The notes beneath the pieces were generated by a model. The model did no database searches. It was not told where the DNA came from and saw only the letters and a list, made by a program, of their open reading frames with translations. Source: Dehalococcoidia bacterium (GTDB taxonomy: Bacteria; Chloroflexota; Dehalococcoidia; DSTF01; WHTK01). From it: a stretch of 64,000 bases of DNA. The stretch lies in assembly GCA_965219205.1 (NCBI GenBank), contig CBDCMQ010000007.1, positions 227,594-291,593 on the forward strand. The letters run 5' to 3'. Position 1 is the first letter of the stretch, and the number at the start of each line of letters is the position of its first letter. Position numbers and translations under genes: made by a program. Positions 1 to 13,761 of this stretch are shown piece by piece.

Positions 1-306
1 AACCAATACCTCCTCAACTTCGCCGGAGCTACCAAACGTTAGACTCGATTGCTGAGTCGCCGGGGCGCGTCCGCTGGCCGAAATTGTGTCATTTAAGGTG
101 GTTTCGAAAGCAGGAATGTAAGCTGGAGCGGCCGGGGCCGGTTGATTAAGGTCTGTGACCGAGGCATACAGCTTGTACCCACCGAAGGCCGCTGCCAGCG
201 CAATGGCCACCAGGGCGAGAATTTCAAACGATGACGGACCTCGAGAAATCGACCTGCCTTGCAGCTGCAGGCGGCCATGACCTCCACCGGAAATTGACTG
301 ACTCAA
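1..306 (-). CDS. Efflux RND/MacA-HlyD-type periplasmic adaptor subunit, 5' part (runs off left edge)
   Basis: Not in ORF track. Manual translation from TTG at 306 (GAGGGAG upstream): N-terminal TM ILALVAIALAAAFGGY, then TLNDTISASGRAPATQQSSLTFGSSGEVEEVLV, typical of adaptor N-termini. Confidence 0.7.
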   Translation of the reverse strand, partial: MSQSISGGGHGRLQLQGRSISRGPSSFEILALVAIALAAAFGGYKLYASVTDLNQPAPAAPAYIPAFETTLNDTISASGRAPATQQSSLTFGSSGEVEEVLV

Positions 307-419
307 CGGCACTCTCCCTCGGGCGGATACTAGACTCCGTGGCGTGCGCAATTATCAAGAAAGGCTTAAACAATAGCAAAGAAGCAAAGGAGAGCAGACT
401 TGCAGGAGTTCTACCGCCA

Positions 420-815
420 ATGACCTTTGAGACAAAGCGACTGCCAACCTCGCCCGATGTACGCGCCCCGGACGGCTCAGATGTAAGGGTTCTGCTCGCG
501 CTCGAAGGCGGCAGCATGGCTCACTTTGAACTCCCGTCCGGCCTGATCTCTCAAGCGGTGGCTCACAAAACTGTCAGCGAAGTTTGGTACGTGGTGGGCG
601 GTCAGGGAGAAATGTGGCGCCGACTCGACGATCAGGAGGAAGTGGTCGACTTGGCACCAGGAATCTGCATTTCGATTCCGGCCGGTACTGCGTTTCAGTT
701 CCGCACAACTGGCCCTGATCCCATCAGTGCGATAGCAGTCACCATGCCTCCGTGGCCCGGTGAAACCGAAGCCTACGAGGTCACCGGCAAGTGGGTTGCC
801 AAGCTCAGCGAATAG
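420..815 (+). CDS. Cupin domain protein
   Basis: Cupin motifs AVAHKTVSEVWYVVGGQG and PGICISIPAGTAFQFR; start moved to ATG 420 (AGGAG upstream). Confidence 0.8.
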   Translation: MTFETKRLPTSPDVRAPDGSDVRVLLALEGGSMAHFELPSGLISQAVAHKTVSEVWYVVGGQGEMWRRLDDQEEVVDLAPGICISIPAGTAFQFRTTGPDPISAIAVTMPPWPGETEAYEVTGKWVAKLSE

Positions 816-944
816 CTAACACCGGCAATGCGCGTGACGCTTGCCGGGGGCTAAAAGGCGCCTTGCGTCTGCGAACAACCGGGCTTCGCCCGTTGAATGC
901 CGCTCTGCTAGTGCCCGATTAGCGCCTGGTAGAAGATGGTGTCT

Positions 945-1592
945 ATGCGAATTTTGGTGGGCACGAAAATCACTGACGCCGCGGCCGATTGGCGTGAAGC
1001 GCTGCCGGAGCAGCCAGTCGTTGTCGACCTCGGCGCTGGAGACGGTCGCTTCACCTACGAACAAGCAAAGCGCGATCCAAAGGCCCTTTTCGTGGGCGTC
1101 GATGCGGACGGCGATACGCTCTCTGAATACGCGTTCCGAGCGGCTCGCAAGCCTTCCCGCGGTGGCACTGGGAACGCAATCTTTGTCGTGGCCGCTGCCG
1201 AAGCCTTGCCGGAAGAACTGCTTGGCATAGCCAGCCTGGTTCGGGTTAATTTCCCCTGGGGCAGTCTGCTACGAGGTCTGGTGCTTCCCGAGCCCTCGAT
1301 CCTCAAGGCGGTGGCCGGCTTATCTAATCCTGGCGGGCGTTTTGAGTTCGTCATCTGTTACGACCCGGTCCACGATCTCGCCGGGCTCGGCGGAGAGACC
1401 CTGCCACCACTGGAGGAGGCGCGCATCGATAGTGCTTTGGCGCCGGCCTACGCCGAGGCCGGCCTTAGTTTGGAAGAAAAGCGGAGACTGAAGGTGAAAG
1501 AGGCGCTGGCGATACCGTCCACTTGGGGCAGACGCCTTCTCCACGGTCGCAACCGCAGCGTCTTTCTGATCCGCGGCAGCTTTCGAACTTGA
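945..1592 (+). CDS. 16S rRNA (adenine(1408)-N1)-methyltransferase, NpmA/KamB family
   Basis: DLGAGDGR SAM motif, GVD, RKPSRGG..N..FVVAAAEALP, NFPWGSLL, STWGRRL and GRNR all match the NpmA/KamB motifs; about 215 aa. Confidence 0.85.
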   Translation: MRILVGTKITDAAADWREALPEQPVVVDLGAGDGRFTYEQAKRDPKALFVGVDADGDTLSEYAFRAARKPSRGGTGNAIFVVAAAEALPEELLGIASLVRVNFPWGSLLRGLVLPEPSILKAVAGLSNPGGRFEFVICYDPVHDLAGLGGETLPPLEEARIDSALAPAYAEAGLSLEEKRRLKVKEALAIPSTWGRRLLHGRNRSVFLIRGSFRT

Positions 1593-1629
1593 ATTCGCCA
1601 CGAGGTCTTGGGTAATCGGCTAACCTTGC

Positions 1630-2385
1630 ATGGAACTACAAGAACAAGCCATGGAAACGGAGCCTCTAATGCTGACTGCGCGTAGCCTCCTCTTCGTCCC
1701 GGCTAACAACGAGGGAATGATCGATGAGGCCAAATCCGGCGCTGCCGACGTCATTGTCCTCGACCTGGAAAACTTTGTCCTGCCAGCGGAAAAGCCGGGT
1801 GCGCGGTCCACGATTAGATCCACCATCGAAAAGCTAAGTGCAGCGGGCAAAACTGTCCATGTGCGCATCAACCCTCTCGAATCCGGGCTGACGCAAGAGG
1901 ACTTGACCGCCGCCGTCGGGCCTGGTCTCGAGGGCATCGTCTTTCCCAAAACCGACGCGCCCCACCAGATTCGGGAACTGGATGTGATTATCCGTGAGCA
2001 GGAAATCCGCAAGGAAGTCCGCCCCGGAACCGCAGGGCTCTTTCCCCATCTTGGAAGCGCCAGCGGACTCCTGCGTTGTGAAGAGATCGCGCTCGCTTCA
2101 ACCCGTATTGCCGGAATTGCCCTGGATGTAGATGCGTACGCCGATGACGTTGGCATGCTGCGAACCAGCTCCGGCCACGAACTCGACTACGCTCGCAACG
2201 TTCTGACTCACTGTTGTGCCGCACATCAACTTTTGGCGCTCGACGCAGCCTTTTCAGACGTCAAGGACCTTGCTGGTCTGACGGAGGAAGCAATTCGCTC
2301 GCGTTCACTCGGTTTCAAGGGCAAGTACCTGATTCATGCGGAGCAAATTGACGCGGTAAATCGCGCCTTTTCGCGAACGTCCTAA
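1630..2385 (+). CDS. CoA ester lyase, HpcH/HpaI aldolase/citrate lyase beta (CitE-like)
   Basis: RSLLFVPAN, ADVIVLDLE, VRINP, FPK, GFKGKYLIH..QIDAVNRAF. Confidence 0.85.
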   Translation: MELQEQAMETEPLMLTARSLLFVPANNEGMIDEAKSGAADVIVLDLENFVLPAEKPGARSTIRSTIEKLSAAGKTVHVRINPLESGLTQEDLTAAVGPGLEGIVFPKTDAPHQIRELDVIIREQEIRKEVRPGTAGLFPHLGSASGLLRCEEIALASTRIAGIALDVDAYADDVGMLRTSSGHELDYARNVLTHCCAAHQLLALDAAFSDVKDLAGLTEEAIRSRSLGFKGKYLIHAEQIDAVNRAFSRTS

Positions 2386-2404
2386 CAGGCCGGCCGGCTA
2401 AGAG

Positions 2405-3424
2405 CTAAAAATGCGCCGCGAACCACTGATAGCGCTCGGGGGAGAGTTCCGCGAGCCTTGACGGGTCGCCAAAATACAGGGCGAAGCTGTTGGCGAAGTC
2501 CTCCAGAGGGTCTTCGCGAGAGAGAGAGCTCCAAAGCGGCTCGCCTTCGTAGGCGAATGAGACTCGAGCGTGATCGATCATCGAAATGACCTCTTCGGAC
2601 GGTGTCAGGACCTGCCAGCCTGCCATGACCATGAAGCTTTGCATCTCTGACCCGAGCAAGACACTGGCATAGTCGCCGGCCGGCGAATGCCTCAGGTTAT
2701 AGGCGTGGCCGAGCTCGTGCAGGATCGTCAGCACCGGTTGCCTGGGATACAGCACTACTTCATTCACATCGTCGTTTGTCGTGAAGTAGTTTGCCGGTCC
2801 GCCGTAAGGCTGGCTTCCCGTAGACGCAACACCTTCTGTACTCACGGTTATGTTTAGAATGCCGAGCTCACTGTTACCAAGCTGAGTCTTCACCGCCGAC
2901 GGAAGCAAGGCCAAGGCTTGCTCGACGTTGCTAAGAGTCACCAAATCCCAATCTTCGGCATCGATAAGCAAAACGAGCGAAGAAGCCTCTTCGACCGGTG
3001 CCAAAACCGGTGCGACTGGCACTTCAGCTGATTCCTGCGCGACGACTTCAAACCTGGGGACACTCCAGACCCCGCTAAAGCCTATTTCGAGCAGGCGCGG
3101 AACCAGGTCAGACGCAGCGCCGGATTCGGAGCTCGAGCCAGCTTCTACGACGAAGCCATTCTCTGATGCCGAGCCACTTCTGACGAAGGGTTGTCCGGCA
3201 GAGCCAGCCCTGCGCGCAGGGTCGCTCGCAGGCGTACGAATAATCTGAACGCTAGATGTTTCCGCGACCGCGTGGCCGGTCGGCTGGCGTGATTGAAATT
3301 CGACGCTCAGCGACCAAGGCGCCGCTAAGGGAAGGAAGATAAGGGCCACGAAGCCTGCAACCAAAGCGAGAAGCAAGCGGCGTGGGTGCGCCGGAACAGG
3401 CGACTGAGGAAGTCGAGCTAACAT
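2405..3424 (-). CDS. Secreted/membrane-anchored zinc metallopeptidase (HEXXH, ATLF/PPEP-like C-terminus)
   Basis: Hydrophobic N-terminus; ILHELGHAY; EDFANSFALYF...LSPERYQWF. Confidence 0.65.
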   Translation of the reverse strand: MLARLPQSPVPAHPRRLLLALVAGFVALIFLPLAAPWSLSVEFQSRQPTGHAVAETSSVQIIRTPASDPARRAGSAGQPFVRSGSASENGFVVEAGSSSESGAASDLVPRLLEIGFSGVWSVPRFEVVAQESAEVPVAPVLAPVEEASSLVLLIDAEDWDLVTLSNVEQALALLPSAVKTQLGNSELGILNITVSTEGVASTGSQPYGGPANYFTTNDDVNEVVLYPRQPVLTILHELGHAYNLRHSPAGDYASVLLGSEMQSFMVMAGWQVLTPSEEVISMIDHARVSFAYEGEPLWSSLSREDPLEDFANSFALYFGDPSRLAELSPERYQWFAAHF

Positions 3425-3477
3425 GCCAGCATCCTTGCTGCCTAGCCGCGCCTAAGCGCGTTTTAGCTGCCCATGAG

Positions 3478-3518
3478 GCTCAGACCAATCCTGGTCAAAG
3501 CTCGGACCGATCCTGGTC
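3478..3518. promoter_or_regulatory. Tandem palindromic operator-like repeats
   Basis: GCTCAGACCAATCCTGGTC (3478-3496) and GCTCGGACCGATCCTGGTC (3500-3518), 22-bp period, each containing GACC-N6-GGTC. Confidence 0.5.
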
Positions 3519-3526
3519 CTGATATA

Positions 3527-3554
3527 GAAAACGCCCGCCTTTCGCGGGCGTTTC
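3527..3554 (-). terminator. Intrinsic terminator downstream of folE
   Basis: GAAAACGCCCGC-CTTTC-GCGGGCGTTTC hairpin. Confidence 0.6.
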
Positions 3555-3590
3555 GTTGCTGTACTTCTCTCTTTATGCGATTTCGCTCGT

Positions 3591-4199
3591 CTAGCCACCG
3601 TTCCGAATCAGGCTCAAGAATTCCGATCGAGTACGTGCATCTGTCTTAAATCGTCCGAGCATGCAACTTGTTGTGGCCAGGCTGTTTTGCTTCTCGGCGC
3701 CGCGCATCATCATGCAGAGATGTTGCGCCTCCATTACTACCGCCACACCCTTCGGCTGCAAAATCTCCTCGATCGCCGTGGCAATCTCCGTCGTCAGGCG
3801 CTCTTGAACCTGGAGGCGCCGTGCATAGATATCAGCTATTCGAGCCAACTTGCTGAGGCCGACGATCTTGCCGTCTGGCAGATAGGCGATGTGACAGCGG
3901 CCAAAAAACGGCAGCAGATGATGTTCGCAGAGGCTGTAGACCTCAACGTCCTTCACGACCACCATTTCGTCATACTCAGCCTCGAAAAGCGCGCTACCGA
4001 CGACTTCCCGCGGATCGACATCATAACCCTGCATCAGAAAGGACAGGCTGTTAGCTACGCGAGCCGGCGTCTTAACCAGGCCGTCTCGATCTGGGTTTTC
4101 GCCAAGCTCTGCCAGCAAGGACCGGACCAATCCGGCCAGGATCGGAGAGGCGGCTTCATCAGTCTCAAAAAAATCGAGTTTGGTTTCTGGTTCCACCAT
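3591..4199 (-). CDS. folE: GTP cyclohydrolase I
   Basis: [43 protein letters not shown]. Confidence 0.97.
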
Positions 4200-4238
4200 T
4201 TGATTCTAACCCGCTTGTCTTGAAAATCAGGCTCGGCG

Positions 4239-4730
4239 CTACCAGCGCTCCTGATGGACCAACTCTTCCATCGGTAGCCGCTTGCGGCTTTCCAGCGGTG
4301 TTTCGTTTGCCGCCGGATAGCCAAACGCCACGGCGATAGCCACCCTATAGTCGTCTGGAATGCCGAGTGTCTCGCGGCTGAGGTCTTCGTCCTGCAGACC
4401 AACTGGGCAATTGATTATGCCTTCACTCCAGGCAGCAAGCATCATATTTTGCGCCACTCGGCCGACATCAAAATCACTGGCCCCTTGTTTGAGAGCTACG
4501 GCGACGCAAAGCGGCGCGTTGCGCAAAGGTTCACCACCCCGACCTGCTTCCGCCAGCTTCTGCCTGGTGGCTTGATCACGCACCGCGATCAAGCGGCATG
4601 GCTGGGAGTTACTGGAGCTTCCGGCCATACGGCCGGCCTGCAAGATTCGATTTACGGCGCCATCTTCGAGGCCACGGGAGTCATAATTGCGCCGGTCGCG
4701 CTTGGTCACTATCGTCTTGTAGGCGTTCAT
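4239..4730 (-). CDS. Nitroreductase family protein
   Basis: KRDRRNY, AGSSSNSQP, DVGRVAQNMMLAAWSEGI, VAFGYP. Confidence 0.88.
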   Translation of the reverse strand: MNAYKTIVTKRDRRNYDSRGLEDGAVNRILQAGRMAGSSSNSQPCRLIAVRDQATRQKLAEAGRGGEPLRNAPLCVAVALKQGASDFDVGRVAQNMMLAAWSEGIINCPVGLQDEDLSRETLGIPDDYRVAIAVAFGYPAANETPLESRKRLPMEELVHQERW

Positions 4731-4802
4731 CCAGCCCCCTTCTTGTCCCTGTCGATCAGGAGCCTAAACTGTACGAATCAAAGTACCGCATTCGGAGGCC
4801 AA

Positions 4803-5201
4803 ATGACCGAACTCTCCCAAGATGCTCAGACGCTGATCGACGAACCGCATCTTGCCCACTTCGTCACTTTAATGAAGGACGGATCACCCCAGGTATCACC
4901 GGTATGGGTTGACCACGACGGCACTCACATCCTGATCAACACGGCGGAAGGCCGCCAGAAGCCGCGAAACATTAGGCGCGATCGTCGTGTTGCCCTTTCC
5001 ATCGCTGACCACCAAAACAGCTTTCGCTACCTGCTCGTGCGCGGCAAGGTCGTCGAGATCACTACTGAAGGAGCCTGGGATCACATCCGCAAGCTAAATC
5101 TCAAGTACACCGGTTCGAGCGACTATCCGAAACACGATGGTCAGGTGCGGCTCCTGGTCAAGATTCTGCCGGAGCACGTCTTCTTCAGTCTCACCGGATA
5201 G
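4803..5201 (+). CDS. PPOX class F420-dependent oxidoreductase
   Basis: HFVTLMKDGSPQVSPVW, NTAEGRQKPRNIRRDRRVALSI; GGAGG before ATG 4803. Confidence 0.88.
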   Translation: MTELSQDAQTLIDEPHLAHFVTLMKDGSPQVSPVWVDHDGTHILINTAEGRQKPRNIRRDRRVALSIADHQNSFRYLLVRGKVVEITTEGAWDHIRKLNLKYTGSSDYPKHDGQVRLLVKILPEHVFFSLTG

Positions 5202-5268
5202 ACTCTGCCCGTACAGCCTTTGGATTTTTCGCAGGGCCGCCGCGTGACAATGGTAGAATTCAGGCTGG

Positions 5269-5342
5269 GCGGCCAAGGTGTTGTGGTGGCATGCGTCCCT
5301 CCCACGGATGAGGCGGGGGTTCAATTCCCCCTGGCCGCTCCA
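5269..5342 (+). tRNA. tRNA-Gly(CCC)
   Basis: Acceptor GCGGCCA/TGGCCGC, U73, CCA; anticodon arm CGTCC-CTCCCAC-GGATG; T arm GGGGG-TTCAATT-CCCCC; extended -10 TGGTAGAAT at 5251-5259. Confidence 0.92.
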
Positions 5343-5407
5343 GTCTTTTCTCAACCGCGCTGAATTTCGGCGCGGTCTTGCTTTCCTGGGCCGAGGCCCG
5401 CCTGACT

Positions 5408-6613
5408 ATGAACTCCAGTGACGAAGACGACGCCCAACCGCAGGAGCCGCTCAGCGGAGACAGCGAAGCGCCGGGCGCGCTGGAACCGCTTGAACCAGCA
5501 AAACGCCGCGCCGGCGGTCCGGTCGCGAGGCGGATCTATAGCACTGGCCGCGAGGACCTTGACCGTCTCGTCACTGAGACCCTAAAGAGCATCGAGTCAG
5601 GCGCGCCGGACGAAGAAGGCAAAGCCTCCACGATTCATCCAGCCATACTCGAGCTGGCGCGCGAAATGCTGACCTCTTCGCTTCGACTCGTGCTACAGGA
5701 CGCAACCAGGGCTGAATTAAAGCTGGTGAACGCGGCGCTAAAGGAATTCGCCTACTCTTTCCGAATTTTCGCCCCCTACAGCGACCTGCCGAAGGTCAGC
5801 ATTTTCGGCTCAGCCCGTGTCGCCCCCGGGGAACCCGCCTATCTCGCGGCGCGTGACTTCGCGATAGCCATTGCGGCCAAGGGCTGGATGGTAATAACTG
5901 GCGCCGGGCCCGGCATCATGGCCGCAGGGCACGAAGGCGCTGGCGCCAGTCAAAGTTTTGGGGCCAACATTCAGCTACCCGCCCTCAATCCGGCGAACGC
6001 GTACATCGCCAGCGACGACAAACTGATCAACTTCAAATACTTTTTCACCCGCAAAGTTACATTCCTCAAAGAATCTAACGCGTTCGTCCTTCTTCCCGGA
6101 GGTTGGGGCACCCTCGATGAGGCCTTTGAACTGCTCACGCTGATTCAAACCGGCAAGAGCGATCTCCATCCGGTCGTCCTCCTCGAACCTGAAGGCAGCA
6201 GCTATTGGCACCGATGGTTGGAATTCCTGCGAGAGGAGGTTCTGGCTCGCGGTTTCATCCTCGAGAGCGATCTGTCTCTGCTCTGCATCGCCAACAACGC
6301 CGCCGAAGCTGTCGACGAGATCGAGGCCTTCTACCGCAATTATCAATCCGCCCGTTTCGTGGGCGATCGGTTGATTCTACGGCTACAACGCGCGCCGGGC
6401 CCGGAAACGTTGACGTGGCTAAACCGTGAGTTTGCCGACCTCCTGGACGAGGGTTCTTTTGAGGTCATCGAGCCGACGTCGGCTGAGAGGCGCGACGAGG
6501 ACTCGCTCGACAGTGAACGTCTCGCGTTCTTTCCCAGGCATGCCTACGGTCGCTTGCGCCAACTGATCGATGTTTTGAATGGCTTACCAAGCCAGGAAAC
6601 TGGTTCGATCTAA
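5408..6613 (+). CDS. LOG family (TIGR00730) nucleotide phosphoribohydrolase
   Basis: VSIFGSAR, ITGAGPGIM, FKYFFTRK, LPGGWGTLDE. Confidence 0.9.
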   Translation: MNSSDEDDAQPQEPLSGDSEAPGALEPLEPAKRRAGGPVARRIYSTGREDLDRLVTETLKSIESGAPDEEGKASTIHPAILELAREMLTSSLRLVLQDATRAELKLVNAALKEFAYSFRIFAPYSDLPKVSIFGSARVAPGEPAYLAARDFAIAIAAKGWMVITGAGPGIMAAGHEGAGASQSFGANIQLPALNPANAYIASDDKLINFKYFFTRKVTFLKESNAFVLLPGGWGTLDEAFELLTLIQTGKSDLHPVVLLEPEGSSYWHRWLEFLREEVLARGFILESDLSLLCIANNAAEAVDEIEAFYRNYQSARFVGDRLILRLQRAPGPETLTWLNREFADLLDEGSFEVIEPTSAERRDEDSLDSERLAFFPRHAYGRLRQLIDVLNGLPSQETGSI

Positions 6614-9728: not shown

Positions 9729-10955
9729 CTAAATCGCAGCGCCACCACCCGAGACAAGCGCCCGTCCGGTCAGACGATAGTAGTGTCGCTCCACTACCAA
9801 CATGTTGGCTTCAAGCCGGCCTTCGGTCCTAACCTTCGCCCGATTAGACTCAATTGCCGGTCGACGCAGTTGGGCGTCAGAAAGGGCGCGGCCCAACGCC
9901 GCGCTGAGACCAGCGACATCGCCTACTCGTACCCTCAATCCGTTTTCACCATCGCTGATGAACCCATCTTGGCTCGGCAGGTCACTTACTACTGGAAAGC
10001 AACCAGCCGCCATTGCTTCCATCGTGCTCACCGCTAAAGAATCCGAGGATGGCACGGAGACGTAGACGTGGGCCCGGGCCAGCGCGGCTTTGAGGTTCGG
10101 AGCATCCAGTGTGCCCAAGAACTGCACAGCGTCGCCTAGTTCAAGTTCGGACACCATCGATTCCAAAAGGGGGCGCTGACTGCCATCGTGGGCTAACAGC
10201 AGGCGCGCCTCCGGCAACCGCAACCGCAGCTGCGCGAACGCCCTCAGTATGAGATCGACGTTGTAAAGCGGCTCCATGGCTCGATTGCTAATGAGAGTTG
10301 GGGGCTGCTCGCTGGCGTCCGTGTCGTTTGCAGATACTGGCTCGGGCGCCAAGAAGAGATCGTCGACCCCCAATCGAACCAGCTGCACTCGTCCCGCTTT
10401 GACCCCCAGCGCCGAGGCCCGAGCCGCCAAAGCCGGATCGTTGGCGGTCACGAGGTCGGCTCTGCTCAGGGCCCACGCTGCAAGAAACCGGCCCAGGGGC
10501 TTAAAGGAATCCACCAGAAGATCTGATCCCCAGGTGCTTACCACGTACGGGTGAAACCCGCTCAAGGCGCCATAGAAGCCGTGCTCAACGGCGTAGTGGG
10601 CGTGGAAAATGTCCGGCGAAATTTCCCTCAGCTTCAGGCTCAATCCGGCGCGTAGATAGCGCAGGCCATGGGCCGGACGCTGCAGCGTCGGAGGTAGGCG
10701 AAGCGCCAAGGAACGAAAGCTCTCGATCGACTGGGAATTTTCCACGGAAGGTTTCAAGGTCGAAGGAGCGGCTCTGTCTTGTAGCGGGTGCACTGTTACG
10801 CCGGGCATTTTCGCCTGGGGCTGGTAGTAAGAAATCGCGTGAACATCGTGGCCGCGCTCGACAAACACTTGCAGCCAACGTCTCGCATGCGAGCCTTCGA
10901 AGTCGGCCAAGAAAGCAATCCTAAGAGGCGCACCGGGTAGCTCAGCCTGGTTCAT
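9729..10955 (-). CDS. Glycosyltransferase family 4
   Basis: DIFHAH, WGSDLL, EAMAAGCFPVVSD. Confidence 0.88.
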   Translation of the reverse strand: MNQAELPGAPLRIAFLADFEGSHARRWLQVFVERGHDVHAISYYQPQAKMPGVTVHPLQDRAAPSTLKPSVENSQSIESFRSLALRLPPTLQRPAHGLRYLRAGLSLKLREISPDIFHAHYAVEHGFYGALSGFHPYVVSTWGSDLLVDSFKPLGRFLAAWALSRADLVTANDPALAARASALGVKAGRVQLVRLGVDDLFLAPEPVSANDTDASEQPPTLISNRAMEPLYNVDLILRAFAQLRLRLPEARLLLAHDGSQRPLLESMVSELELGDAVQFLGTLDAPNLKAALARAHVYVSVPSSDSLAVSTMEAMAAGCFPVVSDLPSQDGFISDGENGLRVRVGDVAGLSAALGRALSDAQLRRPAIESNRAKVRTEGRLEANMLVVERHYYRLTGRALVSGGGAAI

Positions 10956-12328
10956 AGGCGGCCACCACCGCGAAATCGGTTCGAGACTAAAGGCAGGCCC
11001 CTTGCCATATCGATCAATGCCCTCTTGGCTATCCCGGCGTCTGCAGCTTGCGGAATCAGCGCTTCAATCAACGAGCCACCGGACAGCCGGCGGTAGGCTA
11101 CCACGGTCAAACCGAGACTGACTCCATATGCGAGGCTGGACGCCGCTGCCGCCCCAGGCACTTCGAATACTGGTATTAAGACAAGGTCAGCACCTATTGC
11201 GACGATCAACGTCGCCAGAGCAATCCAGGCATTGATCATCGGTTTTCCTCGACTGAATATATAGGCGGCAAGGACCTTGCTACCCGCGAGGGCAATAGTG
11301 CCGGGCAACAGCCAAAGAAAGGGCAAGACGGCGTCGTCAAAAGCCTCTCCGAAAATTGCTGGAATGACAAACGGTGAAACGGCCGCCGCGGCTAATGAGG
11401 CTACCGCAGTCACAAGCAGCGTGCCTCTGCAAATTAAGGGGGTCATGCGCTGCGCGTACTCTTCACCGCCAGCCGTCAGGTTTGTCAGCAGAACGATTGT
11501 TACCGAGTTGGCGATGAACCAAAGACCTTCACTAAGTGAAACACCGGTCGCGTACAGTCCTACAGCGCTGGCGTTGACAAACAACAGGACAAGATAGGAG
11601 TCCAGCCGCAAATTCAAGAGCTGAATCAGATTTCCCGCCTGAGCCTGGAGGCCAAAGCGCACCACCGGCGCCAATCGGCGCGGTGTCGCCAGGCGACGAG
11701 GCCACGATTGTGATCCGGCAAGGATGTAACCGAAGGCAACCGGCGGCAGAAATGCAAGACTCCAGGCGGAAATGGCGTTGGATATCGTTAGGTTTTCGAG
11801 AACCTCGACGGCACCAAGCGCCACCAGCACGGAGAGCGGCAGTGAAACCTCGAGCAGGTTCATTGCGCCAAAGCGGCCTTGAGCCCGCAATACTCCCTCC
11901 AAGATCCGGAACTGGATCACCGCGGGCACAGCCACCAGAAGGAGCCAGAAAGGAATATTTTCCCTATCCAACTGGTCGGTGAAAAAAAGTGCCGCGATCA
12001 GCACGCCGGCGCCGGTTAGGACGAGCCCGAGAAACGTGACACTGAGCCCGGCTTCCAGCGCCTGCGGCCCGCTAATTTCACGCCGTCCGACTAGAAAAAC
12101 AACGGCGGTGCCAATTCCGAAACTGAAAAATGCAAAGCCCAGGCTGACCGCGGCTTGATAAAGCGCGGTCAGCCCGCGTCCCTCGGTTCCTAATTCACGC
12201 GAGACTAATACAATCACGAGGAAACCCAGACCGTAAGCGACCACAGTGCTCAGGAAAACCAGGTTTACATTGAGAAGAAATCCGCCACCCACACCGCCGG
12301 GCGTGGGGTTTTGATCTGGGCTAGACAT
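10952..12328 (-). CDS. Wzx-like polysaccharide flippase
   Basis: Many TM segments, LNLRLD..LV...AVGLY, GAAAASSLAY; lies between two GTs. Confidence 0.82.
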   Translation of the reverse strand: MSSPDQNPTPGGVGGGFLLNVNLVFLSTVVAYGLGFLVIVLVSRELGTEGRGLTALYQAAVSLGFAFFSFGIGTAVVFLVGRREISGPQALEAGLSVTFLGLVLTGAGVLIAALFFTDQLDRENIPFWLLLVAVPAVIQFRILEGVLRAQGRFGAMNLLEVSLPLSVLVALGAVEVLENLTISNAISAWSLAFLPPVAFGYILAGSQSWPRRLATPRRLAPVVRFGLQAQAGNLIQLLNLRLDSYLVLLFVNASAVGLYATGVSLSEGLWFIANSVTIVLLTNLTAGGEEYAQRMTPLICRGTLLVTAVASLAAAAVSPFVIPAIFGEAFDDAVLPFLWLLPGTIALAGSKVLAAYIFSRGKPMINAWIALATLIVAIGADLVLIPVFEVPGAAAASSLAYGVSLGLTVVAYRRLSGGSLIEALIPQAADAGIAKRALIDMARGLPLVSNRFRGGGRL

Positions 12329-13595
12329 CAACTGAGCCGGCTGCATGCTGGGCGGCGAGCATCTCTTCGAGAGCCTCGCCTTCGGCCTCGATGCGCTCTC
12401 GCCAGCTCCAGAAATTGAGATTCGCGAACTTTAAGGCAGCCTCACTAAGCCTGGTCCGCCGATCTGCGTCGGCGGCGAGTTCCGCTAGAGATTTAGCGAT
12501 CGCCCGCGGGTCACCCGTAGGCAGCAGAACGCCGGTCTCATCGTTGAGGATCAGGTCCCGTGTATCACCAACATCCAATGTCAGAATGCAGCTGCCGCAG
12601 CGCATCGCCTCAAGCAGCGGGTTACCGACATTGGAAAGTTCATTTAGCGAAAGGAAGACATCGGCAGCCCAGAGATACTGCTGAACTTCTTCGTGCGGGA
12701 CTGCTCCAACGAATTTGACCTGGCTTTCGATATTGAGTGCCCGCGCCTGGAGCTCAAGGTTTACTCGCTCCTCTCCGTCTCCAACCGCCAAAAGGCGAGT
12801 ATTGAGGCCGCGTTGCAGCAAAATGGCGACCGCGTCTAAAGCTCGGTCGATGCGCTTCCAGCGCACCAGTCTCACCGCGGTTACCAGGACAAGATCGTCT
12901 CGGGGCAATCCGAGTCGAGCTCGGGCAGCTTCGGTCTCCTCGTCGCTCGCCGCGCGTAGCTCGTCCAAATCCAACCCATTGCGCCAAAACCTGACTTTCC
13001 CACGTGATCTTGGGTTGAGCCGCTCCAAAACCTGATCGCCCTCGGTGCCGTCGTTAGTCATTATGTACAGTTCTGCGGGCGCCCGCAGAGCCATGACTTC
13101 TTCGTACCTTCGAAGCAGACTTAGGCGACGCTCTAGAAAGCGACGCATGATCGTTCCCTGAAACCGCGCCACAAAAGGCCACCGGTGGCGTTCAAGCCGC
13201 GATGCGGCCAAGACGCCGTGGACCTCGTAGCCATACAAGAGGTCAAACTGCTGCTGGCTCGTCAATTGTCTGGCCTGGCGCGAAGCGAAAATCGGAAACA
13301 GGACGGCGAAAGCCAGCTTCTGCCCAAGCCTACGCAACGAAGCTGGCAGAGGCAGCCGCGTTGAAGCCGGGGCCGGCGAGTTAAACAAGTGATAGCGCAC
13401 GCCCGGAATCGGTGGTGGTGGTTGGAATGGCTGGCCAAACTGATGATTGGCACCAATCCTAGGGCCGACAAAATCGATGCTATGGCCGCGGCCGGCTAAG
13501 CCCTCCAGCGTCTTAAACAGCGAGGGTGCGCCACCTTGCCCGGAAAGGGCCCATACCTCGAGGCCGCTAATCATCAAAATGCGGATTTGAGCCAT
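12321..13595 (-). CDS. Glycosyltransferase family 4
   Basis: RLVRWKRID, VGDGEER, GNPLLEAMRCG. Confidence 0.88.
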   Translation of the reverse strand: MAQIRILMISGLEVWALSGQGGAPSLFKTLEGLAGRGHSIDFVGPRIGANHQFGQPFQPPPPIPGVRYHLFNSPAPASTRLPLPASLRRLGQKLAFAVLFPIFASRQARQLTSQQQFDLLYGYEVHGVLAASRLERHRWPFVARFQGTIMRRFLERRLSLLRRYEEVMALRAPAELYIMTNDGTEGDQVLERLNPRSRGKVRFWRNGLDLDELRAASDEETEAARARLGLPRDDLVLVTAVRLVRWKRIDRALDAVAILLQRGLNTRLLAVGDGEERVNLELQARALNIESQVKFVGAVPHEEVQQYLWAADVFLSLNELSNVGNPLLEAMRCGSCILTLDVGDTRDLILNDETGVLLPTGDPRAIAKSLAELAADADRRTRLSEAALKFANLNFWSWRERIEAEGEALEEMLAAQHAAGSVDV

Positions 13596-13684: not shown

Positions 13685-13761
13685 CGGGGTGTAGCTCAGC
13701 CAGGTAGAGCGCACGGTTCGGGACCGTGAGGCCGGCAGTTCAAATCTGCCCACCCCGACCA
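13685..13761 (+). tRNA. tRNA-Pro(CGG)
   Basis: CGGGGTG/CACCCCG acceptor, CACGG-TTCGGGA-CCGTG anticodon arm, GTTCAAATC, ACCA end. Confidence 0.96.

Follow-up and report, generated by a model that had tools for sequence, protein, structure and literature searches.

The stretch of DNA analyzed here (64,000 nucleotides of contig CBDCMQ010000007.1; hereafter the window) belongs to a Dehalococcoidia metagenome-assembled genome (MAG) and carries, at 945..1592 on its plus strand, an intact gene for a member of the Kam/NpmA family of 16S rRNA methyltransferases. We put the probability at roughly 75% that this is a resident, vertically inherited gene for an S-adenosylmethionine (SAM)-dependent enzyme which most likely methylates A1408 at N1 (m1A1408) as NpmA does and would thereby give its host tolerance of aminoglycosides. 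The gene had been singled out from the letters of the sequence alone, as a chromosomal NpmA/KamB-type pan-aminoglycoside resistance methyltransferase in a Chloroflexota-like genome (hereafter the original prediction). The family, the chromosomal setting and the kind of host all stood up to our analysis; the breadth of resistance and the presumed rarity of the family had to be revised.

The open reading frame (ORF) encodes 215 amino acids plus a stop codon. An in-frame ATG at 936 gives a 218-residue form with three residues more, and all residue numbers of the methyltransferase count from that ATG. The start at 945 is the second Met; it is the choice of the gene callers (P0002, 215 amino acids, 100% identical), and the profile models of NpmA and KamB begin to align at residue 4, which is the Met at 945. 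The protein matched the Pfam model PF24675 (NpmA) with 193.3 bits against a gathering cut-off of 60 (E = 4.4e-57), and the alignment of residues 6-213 to model positions 2-211 of 214 spans the whole model. When all PDB chains were searched with phmmer, ten m1A1408 methyltransferase sequences (7EHF, 4RWZ, 3MTE, 3P2E, 3PB3, 3MQ2, 5BW5, 4X1O, 5BW4 and 7JLZ) were returned at E = 3.8e-42 to 1e-23, and the next match was a TrmB chain at E = 0.0016. TrmB, the tRNA (guanine46-N7) methyltransferase with which the original prediction had contrasted its family assignment, shares the N-terminal class I SAM-binding motif. An identity as TrmB was rejected: only that motif matched PF02390 (26.8 bits, residues 26-80, 51 of 173 profile positions), and two NCBIfam TrmB models scored 26 and 25 bits against cut-offs of 132 and 113, with TrmB-type E values of about 1e-6. 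These comparisons confirm, at the level of sequence, a real and intact member of the Kam/NpmA m1A1408 methyltransferase family. To judge by the curated NCBIfam models, it is none of the named enzymes. The best of these models, NpmB (NF040634), gave 145.8 bits against a cut-off of 460, followed by WarA (NF051863; 139 against 305), KamB (NF000363; 123 against 350) and NpmA (NF000030; 112 against 470). Identity to the solved m1A1408 enzymes is 28-38%, the query being roughly equidistant from all of them.

The query was aligned with 109 representatives of 195-270 amino acids, drawn from the 150 best clusters at 50% identity with the other 41 dropped, which gave 110 rows; a second alignment comprised 80 rows. 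At every invariant or near-invariant column of both alignments the query carries the consensus residue. G33, G35, P107, W108 and W197 are invariant in 80/80 rows, and D31, G37, A44, D56, G76, G77, N80, P92, L95, L111, L156, P157, G176 and L201 are kept in at least 90% of the same rows. In the larger alignment P107 and W108 are again invariant (110/110), with G33 and G35 found in 109 rows each, W197 in 108, D31 in 107 and R207 in 87. Every motif named in the original prediction was located in the translation, namely DLGAGDG (31-37), GVD (54-56), KPSRGG (72-77), N80, FVVAAAEALP (83-92), FPWGSL (106-111), STWGRRL (195-201) and GRNR (204-207). The residues it had taken for the SAM-binding Asp pair, the two Trp and the Arg contacting helix 44 map to D30, D55, W107, W197 and R207 in the pairwise alignment with NpmA, from which all residue equivalences were read (the NpmA PDB chain has three extra N-terminal residues).

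Conservation is tighter still within f1, the genome family of the query: D31, D56, P107, W108, W197 and R207 are invariant in 12/12 f1 sequences and E89 is present in 11. The basic character of the beta2/3 linker is also retained. Four of the five Lys of the corresponding stretch in NpmA are matched by its R68, R71, K72 and R75, which are kept in 12/12 f1 sequences, and the adjoining G76, G77 and N80 are nearly invariant in the family. The beta6/7 linker of the query additionally contains R199, R200 and R205.

The roles of these residues in characterized enzymes have been described in the studies cited here by PMC number. W107 and W197 are universally conserved in m1A1408 methyltransferases and sandwich the flipped A1408, F105 adding a contact; D55, E88 and S195 line the SAM pocket, where D55 contacts the ribose, and N38 and L196 of NpmA form the pocket for the methionine part of SAM (PMC12340973). 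R207 of NpmA holds the phosphate of the flipped A1408 and W197 forms the other Trp wall, while docking on a tertiary surface of 16S rRNA falls to the basic beta2/3 linker (PMC4705659). In CacKam, the equivalents of D31, D56, E89, W108, S195 and W197 were each essential (PMC4705659, Table 1). A variation on this theme was seen in a second Dehalococcoidia family, f4, where all eight sequences (L015-L023) have Pro at the R207 position and Arg at position 204 instead. The phosphate-holding Arg of the f4 clade may lie elsewhere in the beta6/7 linker, as is discussed for KamB (PMC4705659).

An AlphaFold2 model was built on the 80-sequence family alignment and reached a mean predicted local distance difference test score (pLDDT) of 95.8 and a predicted template-modeling score (pTM) of 0.92. 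In this model an N-terminal beta-hairpin (strands E5-8 and E11-14) precedes the class I core. In a Foldseek search of the PDB, ranks 1-19 were all m1A1408 enzymes (CacKam, NpmA, NpmB1, Kmr, KamB and UncKam) with template-modeling (TM) scores of 0.76-0.90, and the matches beyond rank 19 were generic class I small-molecule methyltransferases with TM scores of at most 0.60. As a predicted structure, the protein has the class I methyltransferase fold together with the N-terminal hairpin and the linkers. With the beta5/6 linker set aside, the translated protein carries all the family-defining features that can be checked in silico.

Among the solved enzymes, NpmB1 (PDB 7EHF; NF040634) is the best sequence match (phmmer E = 3.8e-42, 147 bits, residues 26-213), with a Foldseek TM score of 0.81-0.85 and 38% identity; motif I, FPWGSLL, TWG.RL and the basic KP..GG linker occur in both. 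NpmB1 is reportedly an acquired enzyme of clinical E. coli, whereas the query is a syntenic chromosomal gene of Dehalococcoidia that scores 146 bits where 460 are required. NpmA (PDB 3MTE and 3P2E; 30S complex 4OX9) shares the fold (TM 0.90), the N-terminal hairpin and a length of 215-219 amino acids, and its D30, D55, E88, F105, W107, S195, W197 and R207 all have identical counterparts in the query. NpmA differs in that identity is 35%, that the query falls short of its cut-off and that R153, N38 and L196 are not kept. It also differs in setting: npmA is carried by Tn7734 and the integrative and conjugative element Tn7740 in C. difficile and by plasmid pARS3 (PMC12271512), while the query gene is not on a recognizable mobile element. 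Closer in setting are Kmr of Sorangium cellulosum (4RWZ, 4RX1), CacKam of Catenulispora acidiphila (4X1O, 5BW4) and UncKam of an uncultured bacterium (7JLZ), which are chromosomal genes of non-clinical hosts. The fold is common to all three (TM 0.77-0.90 for Kmr and CacKam, 0.76-0.81 for UncKam), although identity to the query is 28-37%. CacKam has features of its own: its N-terminus is longer, and R43 and R73 hold an extended beta6/7 linker in place. KamB (PDB 3MQ2), the self-resistance gene product of a tobramycin producer (PMC4705659), resembles the query with a TM score of 0.87 and 34% identity, and WarA of Nocardia wallacei belongs to the same family. The query lies below the cut-offs of both and, unlike KamB, has no antibiotic biosynthesis genes among its 26 flanking proteins.

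The single 16S rRNA gene detected in the genome (L014) has ACACACCGCCCGT-C-A-C (CCCGT-C-A-C) at the decoding center, and this C-A-C we take to be C1407-A1408-C1409, numbered from the universal 1392-1406 primer site. The target adenine is thus present in the host. By analogy with NpmA, the protein, once expressed, would dock on the assembled mature 30S subunit via its basic beta2/3 linker. A1408 of helix 44 would then be flipped out between W108 and W197 while R207 holds the phosphate of the flipped nucleotide, and the methyl group would be transferred from SAM to N1 of A1408. Ribosomes with m1A1408 have poor binding of kanamycin-, neomycin- and apramycin-type aminoglycosides, and the expected result would be an intrinsic tolerance of this Dehalococcoidia lineage to such drugs from other microbes. 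Our data establish family membership, the predicted fold, the conserved functional residues, the target adenine, residency and purifying selection; catalysis, the site of methylation, expression and the drug phenotype are inferred.

Resistance to kanamycin, neomycin and apramycin is what the characterized homologues lead us to expect. CacKam, at the time an uncharacterized homologue of a non-pathogen, conferred a kanamycin minimum inhibitory concentration above 1024 ug/ml in E. coli (PMC4705659, Table 1). According to the same source, m1A1408 protects against particular drugs in each class, namely kanamycin (but not gentamicin), neomycin and apramycin, and its effect is reported elsewhere to vary strongly by drug (PMC12391297). 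As the effect of the modification is drug-specific, the term ‘pan-aminoglycoside’ used in the original prediction is too strong for this homologue.

We analyzed the distribution of the gene, which is present as a single copy in its 2.98-Mb, 9-contig, 87.8%-complete genome, by searching the genomes of 40 relatives with the query protein. A match was found in 19/20 other genomes of the f1 family and in 16/17 other genomes of the same genus. Fourteen of the f1 matches are intact and full-length, two have one in-frame TGA (G018, G019) and three are split or partial (G011, G016, G020). No match was obtained in the same-genus genome G001 (83% complete), where the neighboring HpcH-type gene was not found either, so that this absence likely reflects an unassembled region. 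The HpcH-type gene lies directly 3' of the methyltransferase gene in nine of 11 loci from relatives; in G019 it follows 1.4 kb downstream on the same strand, and in G003 the two genes are not linked. The synteny that the original prediction had suggested checking is therefore kept in 10/11 relatives.

Composition gave the same picture of a host-like gene. Its GC content is 0.617 against an ORF mean of 0.586 (z 1.26), its GC content at third codon positions has a z of 0.21 and its codon-usage fit ranks 15 of 44 ORFs, in line with what had been proposed from the letters alone. A tblastn search of 72,556 plasmid records (PLSDB) returned nothing at E <= 1e-5. Nei-Gojobori ratios of nonsynonymous to synonymous substitution rates (dN/dS) were 0.10, 0.20, 0.17, 0.45 and 0.25 in five orthologue pairs, three of which have dS values of 1.3-1.6 that make their ratios rough. 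The gene is under purifying selection. Distribution, linkage and composition together identify a long-standing chromosomal gene of an uncultured Dehalococcoidia lineage, not a mobile cassette, and the chromosomal residency claimed by the original prediction is borne out. As a separate observation, the same-genus genome G005 has three overlapping fragmentary matches at G005:C1:915652-916291 besides an intact copy on contig C4, and this second locus is probably a frameshifted or decayed duplicate.

To place the f1 genes within the class, the Pfam model was run against 301 evenly drawn Dehalococcoidia genomes. It matched above cut-off in 40 of them and left 261 without a match. By family, the gene was found in 3/3 genomes of f1, 9/10 of f4 (8/9 without G274), 17/17 of f26 and 2/17 of f20, and in 0/17 of f10 and 0/12 of f24. 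We then compared the sequences in a quick maximum-likelihood tree (IQ-TREE, LG+G4, unlabeled with respect to named enzymes) whose only support measure is the Shimodaira-Hasegawa-like approximate likelihood ratio test (SH-aLRT). Its 141 rows comprise the query with 11 f1 orthologues, 20 further copies from Dehalococcoidia and the 109 aligned representatives. Five of the 17 f26 copies entered the tree; both f20 copies, G274 and the 41 representatives outside 195-270 amino acids did not. Each genome family formed a clade of its own, with SH-aLRT values of 97 for f1, 96 for f4, 98 for f26 and 87 for f34. These clades do not group with one another as sisters, and support is below 80 at 63 of the 138 inner branches. 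Vertical descent within families is well supported by the sequences, and between the families f1, f4 and f26 the tree fits either a shared ancestral copy or separate long-past gains. The copies L024-L028 (f6, f34, f42) start at the core SAM domain just past a stop codon and have no N-terminal beta-hairpin, a feature likewise missing from the 190-position WarA model. From their sequences these are not broken genes, the ‘stops inside’ arising from the Pfam model reaching upstream of the gene start.

Several points weigh against an NpmA-like enzyme giving drug tolerance. The protein scores far under every curated named-enzyme cut-off, and its function is carried over a distance of 28-38% identity. 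R153 of NpmA, an rRNA contact of the beta5/6 linker, aligns with E154, and NpmA E146 aligns, conservatively, with D147. The alignment is unreliable in this region because the beta5/6 linker is not conserved, having no conserved column in the 110-row family alignment, and equivalents in this linker are stated to be unassignable even between solved members (PMC4705659). NpmA N38 and L196 are replaced by F39 and T196 in the query. The same source adds that the contribution of conserved residues to activity differs among family members (PMC4705659). Five of the 19 f1 matches are interrupted or partial, which may reflect MAG assembly error or a dispensable gene.

We wondered whether m1A1408 might instead be a constitutive housekeeping modification of the decoding center that serves translation or ribosome assembly, with aminoglycoside insensitivity as a by-product. 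Near-fixation of the gene in families f1 (19/20), f4 and f26 with their own clades, purifying selection and ordinary metabolic neighbors with no other resistance gene beside the methyltransferase all speak for this idea, which we nevertheless hold to be rather unlikely. A total of 261/301 Dehalococcoidia genomes have no match, including all those of f10 and f24, which means that the class as a whole does not require the modification. In addition, five of 19 f1 copies are interrupted or partial, and methyltransferases of this kind are reported to have fitness costs in E. coli, smaller ones for the producer enzymes (PMC12406665). The lack of a match in most sampled Dehalococcoidia families and the interrupted or partial f1 copies speak against an essential role. 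Near-fixation would equally be expected of a long-standing protective gene where aminoglycoside producers live, and it fits both aminoglycoside protection and a constitutive modification.

A second alternative is that this family member has drifted to a different adenine in rRNA or tRNA and does not act on A1408 at all. The distance to characterized enzymes, the loss of R153 and the scores below all named-enzyme cut-offs would be compatible with such a drift. However, the Trp pair of the channel, the R207 equivalent, the basic beta2/3 linker and the N-terminal hairpin, which are the parts that give NpmA its specificity for the 30S subunit and A1408, are all kept, and no Kam-fold enzyme with another target appeared among the Foldseek PDB titles or in the portions of the literature examined. 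We consider a change of substrate improbable. A decaying or inactive relic is suggested by the orthologues that are split or contain an in-frame stop (G011, G020, G016, G018, G019), but the query copy is intact, keeps its functional residues and has dN/dS values of 0.10-0.20 against the two closest orthologues, which makes this explanation quite improbable.

The original prediction had also stated that no insertion sequence (IS) is adjacent. This holds within the window, whereas an IS1595-family transposase gene was found about 2.6 kb upstream of the methyltransferase gene, outside the window and beside a truncated N6/N4 DNA-methylase fragment. Both could be read as signs of a recently acquired mobile resistance gene, perhaps brought in by the IS1595 element. 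Yet no second copy of the transposase gene lies on the contig; elsewhere in the genome there are four matches, on contigs C9 and C3 at 35-58% identity. The methyltransferase gene is therefore not bracketed as in a composite transposon. Three genes separate the two, of which the nearest two to the methyltransferase (encoding a HlyD-like N-terminus and a cupin) are syntenic in the closest relative, G012. Orthologues that share the downstream neighbor are spread across the genus. Classification as an acquired mobile 16S methyltransferase gene was rejected, given no plasmid match, host-like composition, presence in 16/17 genus genomes and conserved linkage, and we regard recent mobility as very improbable.

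It is just as hard to credit a self-resistance gene of an aminoglycoside producer, like KamB in Streptoalloteichus tenebrarius: the classical family members are producer self-resistance genes (PMC4705659), but no aminocyclitol or sugar-aminotransferase biosynthesis genes occur among the 26 flanking proteins scanned, in a stretch reaching some 12 kb upstream (L035) and 13 kb downstream of the gene (a genome-wide screen outside these ~25 kb was not made), which agrees with the original prediction, the glycosyltransferase and export genes further downstream look like a cell-envelope cluster and the genome has only 2.98 Mb. A resident, putative A1408 methyltransferase of Kam/NpmA type that would make its host tolerant of aminoglycosides is the reading we retain.

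The protein belongs to a large family. Among 1.84 billion library representatives, we found 1010 matching clusters (50% identity) at E <= 1e-3, 702 at E <= 1e-10 and 65 at E <= 1e-30. Ten representatives that had been guessed to be named enzymes from their length and score reached 108-179 bits against the named models, far below the cut-offs. Together with the 702 clusters this indicates that the named resistance enzymes represent just a few of the tips in a large, deeply branched environmental family. In sequence space this contradicts the premise of the original prediction that such enzymes are chiefly known from producers and a handful of pathogens. The suggestion of a possibly undescribed reservoir lineage stands in part: the lineage is uncharacterized, while the assignment to the family is already in databases, JGI annotating most close homologues as ‘16S rRNA (adenine(1408)-N(1))-methyltransferase’. 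The Dehalococcoidia member adds to a known kind of enzyme. Chromosomal members in non-producers have been studied before, including Kmr, CacKam and ‘four previously uncharacterized’ enzymes (PMC4705659), as well as UncKam of an uncultured bacterium (PDB 7JLZ). For the pairing of Chloroflexota or Dehalococcoidia with A1408, 16S rRNA methyltransferase or aminoglycoside, no title on the family was among the literature matches listed.

Our analysis adds a documented case in which NpmA/Kam ‘resistance’ methyltransferases appear as mostly long-standing chromosomal genes of uncultured environmental bacteria, not mobile cargo, the gene being nearly fixed in three Dehalococcoidia families and without a match in most others sampled. 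For surveillance, ‘npmA-like’ metagenomic matches at 30-40% identity from soil or sediment Chloroflexota are better taken for native, hardly mobile genes than for a spread of the clinical gene. For ribosome biology, these bacteria offer a lineage in which to ask whether m1A1408 is a normal constitutive modification. We tentatively extend this to a broader proposal, which we think has the lesser chance of being right, that ribosomes in whole Dehalococcoidia families carry m1A1408 constitutively as a native feature, that the Kam family consists primarily of ancient housekeeping rRNA modifiers of uncultured bacteria and that the few clinical and producer enzymes were recruited from it. Were this true, these lineages would have an intrinsic insensitivity to much of the aminoglycoside class. 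An active protein would provide another distant sequence (28-38% identical to the solved enzymes) with which to study 30S recognition by the family.

Domain fusions were observed among the longer family representatives. In six of ten that were scanned (P0124, P0127, P0139, P0148, P0163 and P0199, all from other organisms), DUF371 (PF04027) is fused C-terminally to the NpmA-family domain. DUF371 was found in archaea only among the control genomes and was not found in the present genome (87.8% complete). The recurrent fusion suggests a functional partner of A1408 methyltransferases. P0144, also from another organism, joins the NpmA-family domain to a GNAT acetyltransferase domain (Acetyltransf_3) and could be a two-in-one aminoglycoside defense combining target methylation with drug acetylation.

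Table 1. Coordinates of the methyltransferase gene, its functional elements and neighboring features (window positions unless a locus is named)
Feature	Position	Strand	Details
Methyltransferase gene	945..1592	+	215 amino acids plus stop
Motif I DLGAGDG (SAM-binding loop)	1026..1046	+	residues 31-37; D31 = NpmA D30
D56	1101..1103	+	= NpmA D55 (SAM ribose contact); D in 104/110 rows
Beta2/3 linker AFRAARKPSRGGTGN	1131..1175	+	residues 66-80; basic surface, predicted 16S rRNA docking
E89	1200..1202	+	= NpmA E88 (SAM adenosine pocket); E in 90/110 rows, 11/12 f1
FPWGSL	1251..1268	+	residues 106-111; F106, W108 = NpmA F105, W107; one wall of the A1408 channel
Beta6/7 linker STWGRRLLHGRNR	1518..1556	+	residues 195-207; S195, W197, R207 = NpmA S195, W197, R207
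HpcH/HpaI aldolase / citrate-lyase-beta-like gene	1630..2385	+	PF03328, 145.8 bits; 37 nt 3' of the methyltransferase gene
Cupin-domain gene	231..815	+	PF07883; upstream in closest relative L003 (G012) only, among 11 loci
IS1595-family transposase gene (DDE_Tnp_IS1595 + zinc ribbon)	L035:9516-10349	-	~2.6 kb upstream of the gene, outside the window
Region with IS1595 gene and truncated N6/N4 DNA-methylase fragment	L035:8183-10349		G000 contig C7; ~1.65-3.8 kb before the first base of the window
Nitroreductase ORF	4239-4730	-	
PNPOx-like ORF	4449-5201	+	
tRNA-Gly(CCC)	5269-5342	+	
Glycosyltransferase and polysaccharide-biosynthesis genes	9729-13595	-	
tRNA-Pro(CGG)	13685-13761	+	

The HpcH-type gene downstream probably shares a transcript with the methyltransferase gene. 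In a scan for sigma-70 promoters and terminators, no terminator-like site was detected in the 37-nt gap between the two, and no plus-strand promoter-like site was detected upstream of the methyltransferase gene, for which a sigma-70 consensus that may not fit Chloroflexota was used. The scan returned one site in all, on the minus strand, against 0.8 expected. An Rfam scan of window positions 1-6000 placed only the tRNA-Gly above threshold and revealed no leader or riboswitch upstream of the gene.

Pfam scanning of the 26 flanking proteins identified ABC transporters, MacB/FtsX and HlyD-type efflux parts, the cupin, the HpcH-type lyase and a weak M12-peptidase-like protein. Further proteins were a GTP cyclohydrolase I, a nitroreductase, a PNPOx-like protein, a LOG-family protein, a 3-hydroxyisobutyrate-dehydrogenase-like protein and a flavoprotein, as well as two glycosyltransferases and a polysaccharide exporter. 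Upstream, the IS1595 gene and the methylase fragment have a HlyD-like membrane-fusion gene on one side and, on the other, MacB/FtsX plus ABC-ATPase genes of the same strand, a gene order that looks like a MacAB-type efflux operon split by the insertion. The match of the upstream ABC ATPase ORF is confined to the middle of its Pfam profile. Near the tRNA genes, no integrase was found among the ORFs scanned.

The two group-1 glycosyltransferase genes on the minus strand flank a polysaccharide-biosynthesis gene of flippase type, and this group is probably a cell-envelope glycan cluster unrelated to aminoglycosides. The nitroreductase and PNPOx-like ORFs, which lie on opposite strands, overlap by about 280 nt as listed. 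Since the PNPOx domain begins at residue 124 of its long ORF, the true start is probably further downstream, and the overlap is likely an artefact of choosing the longest ORF.

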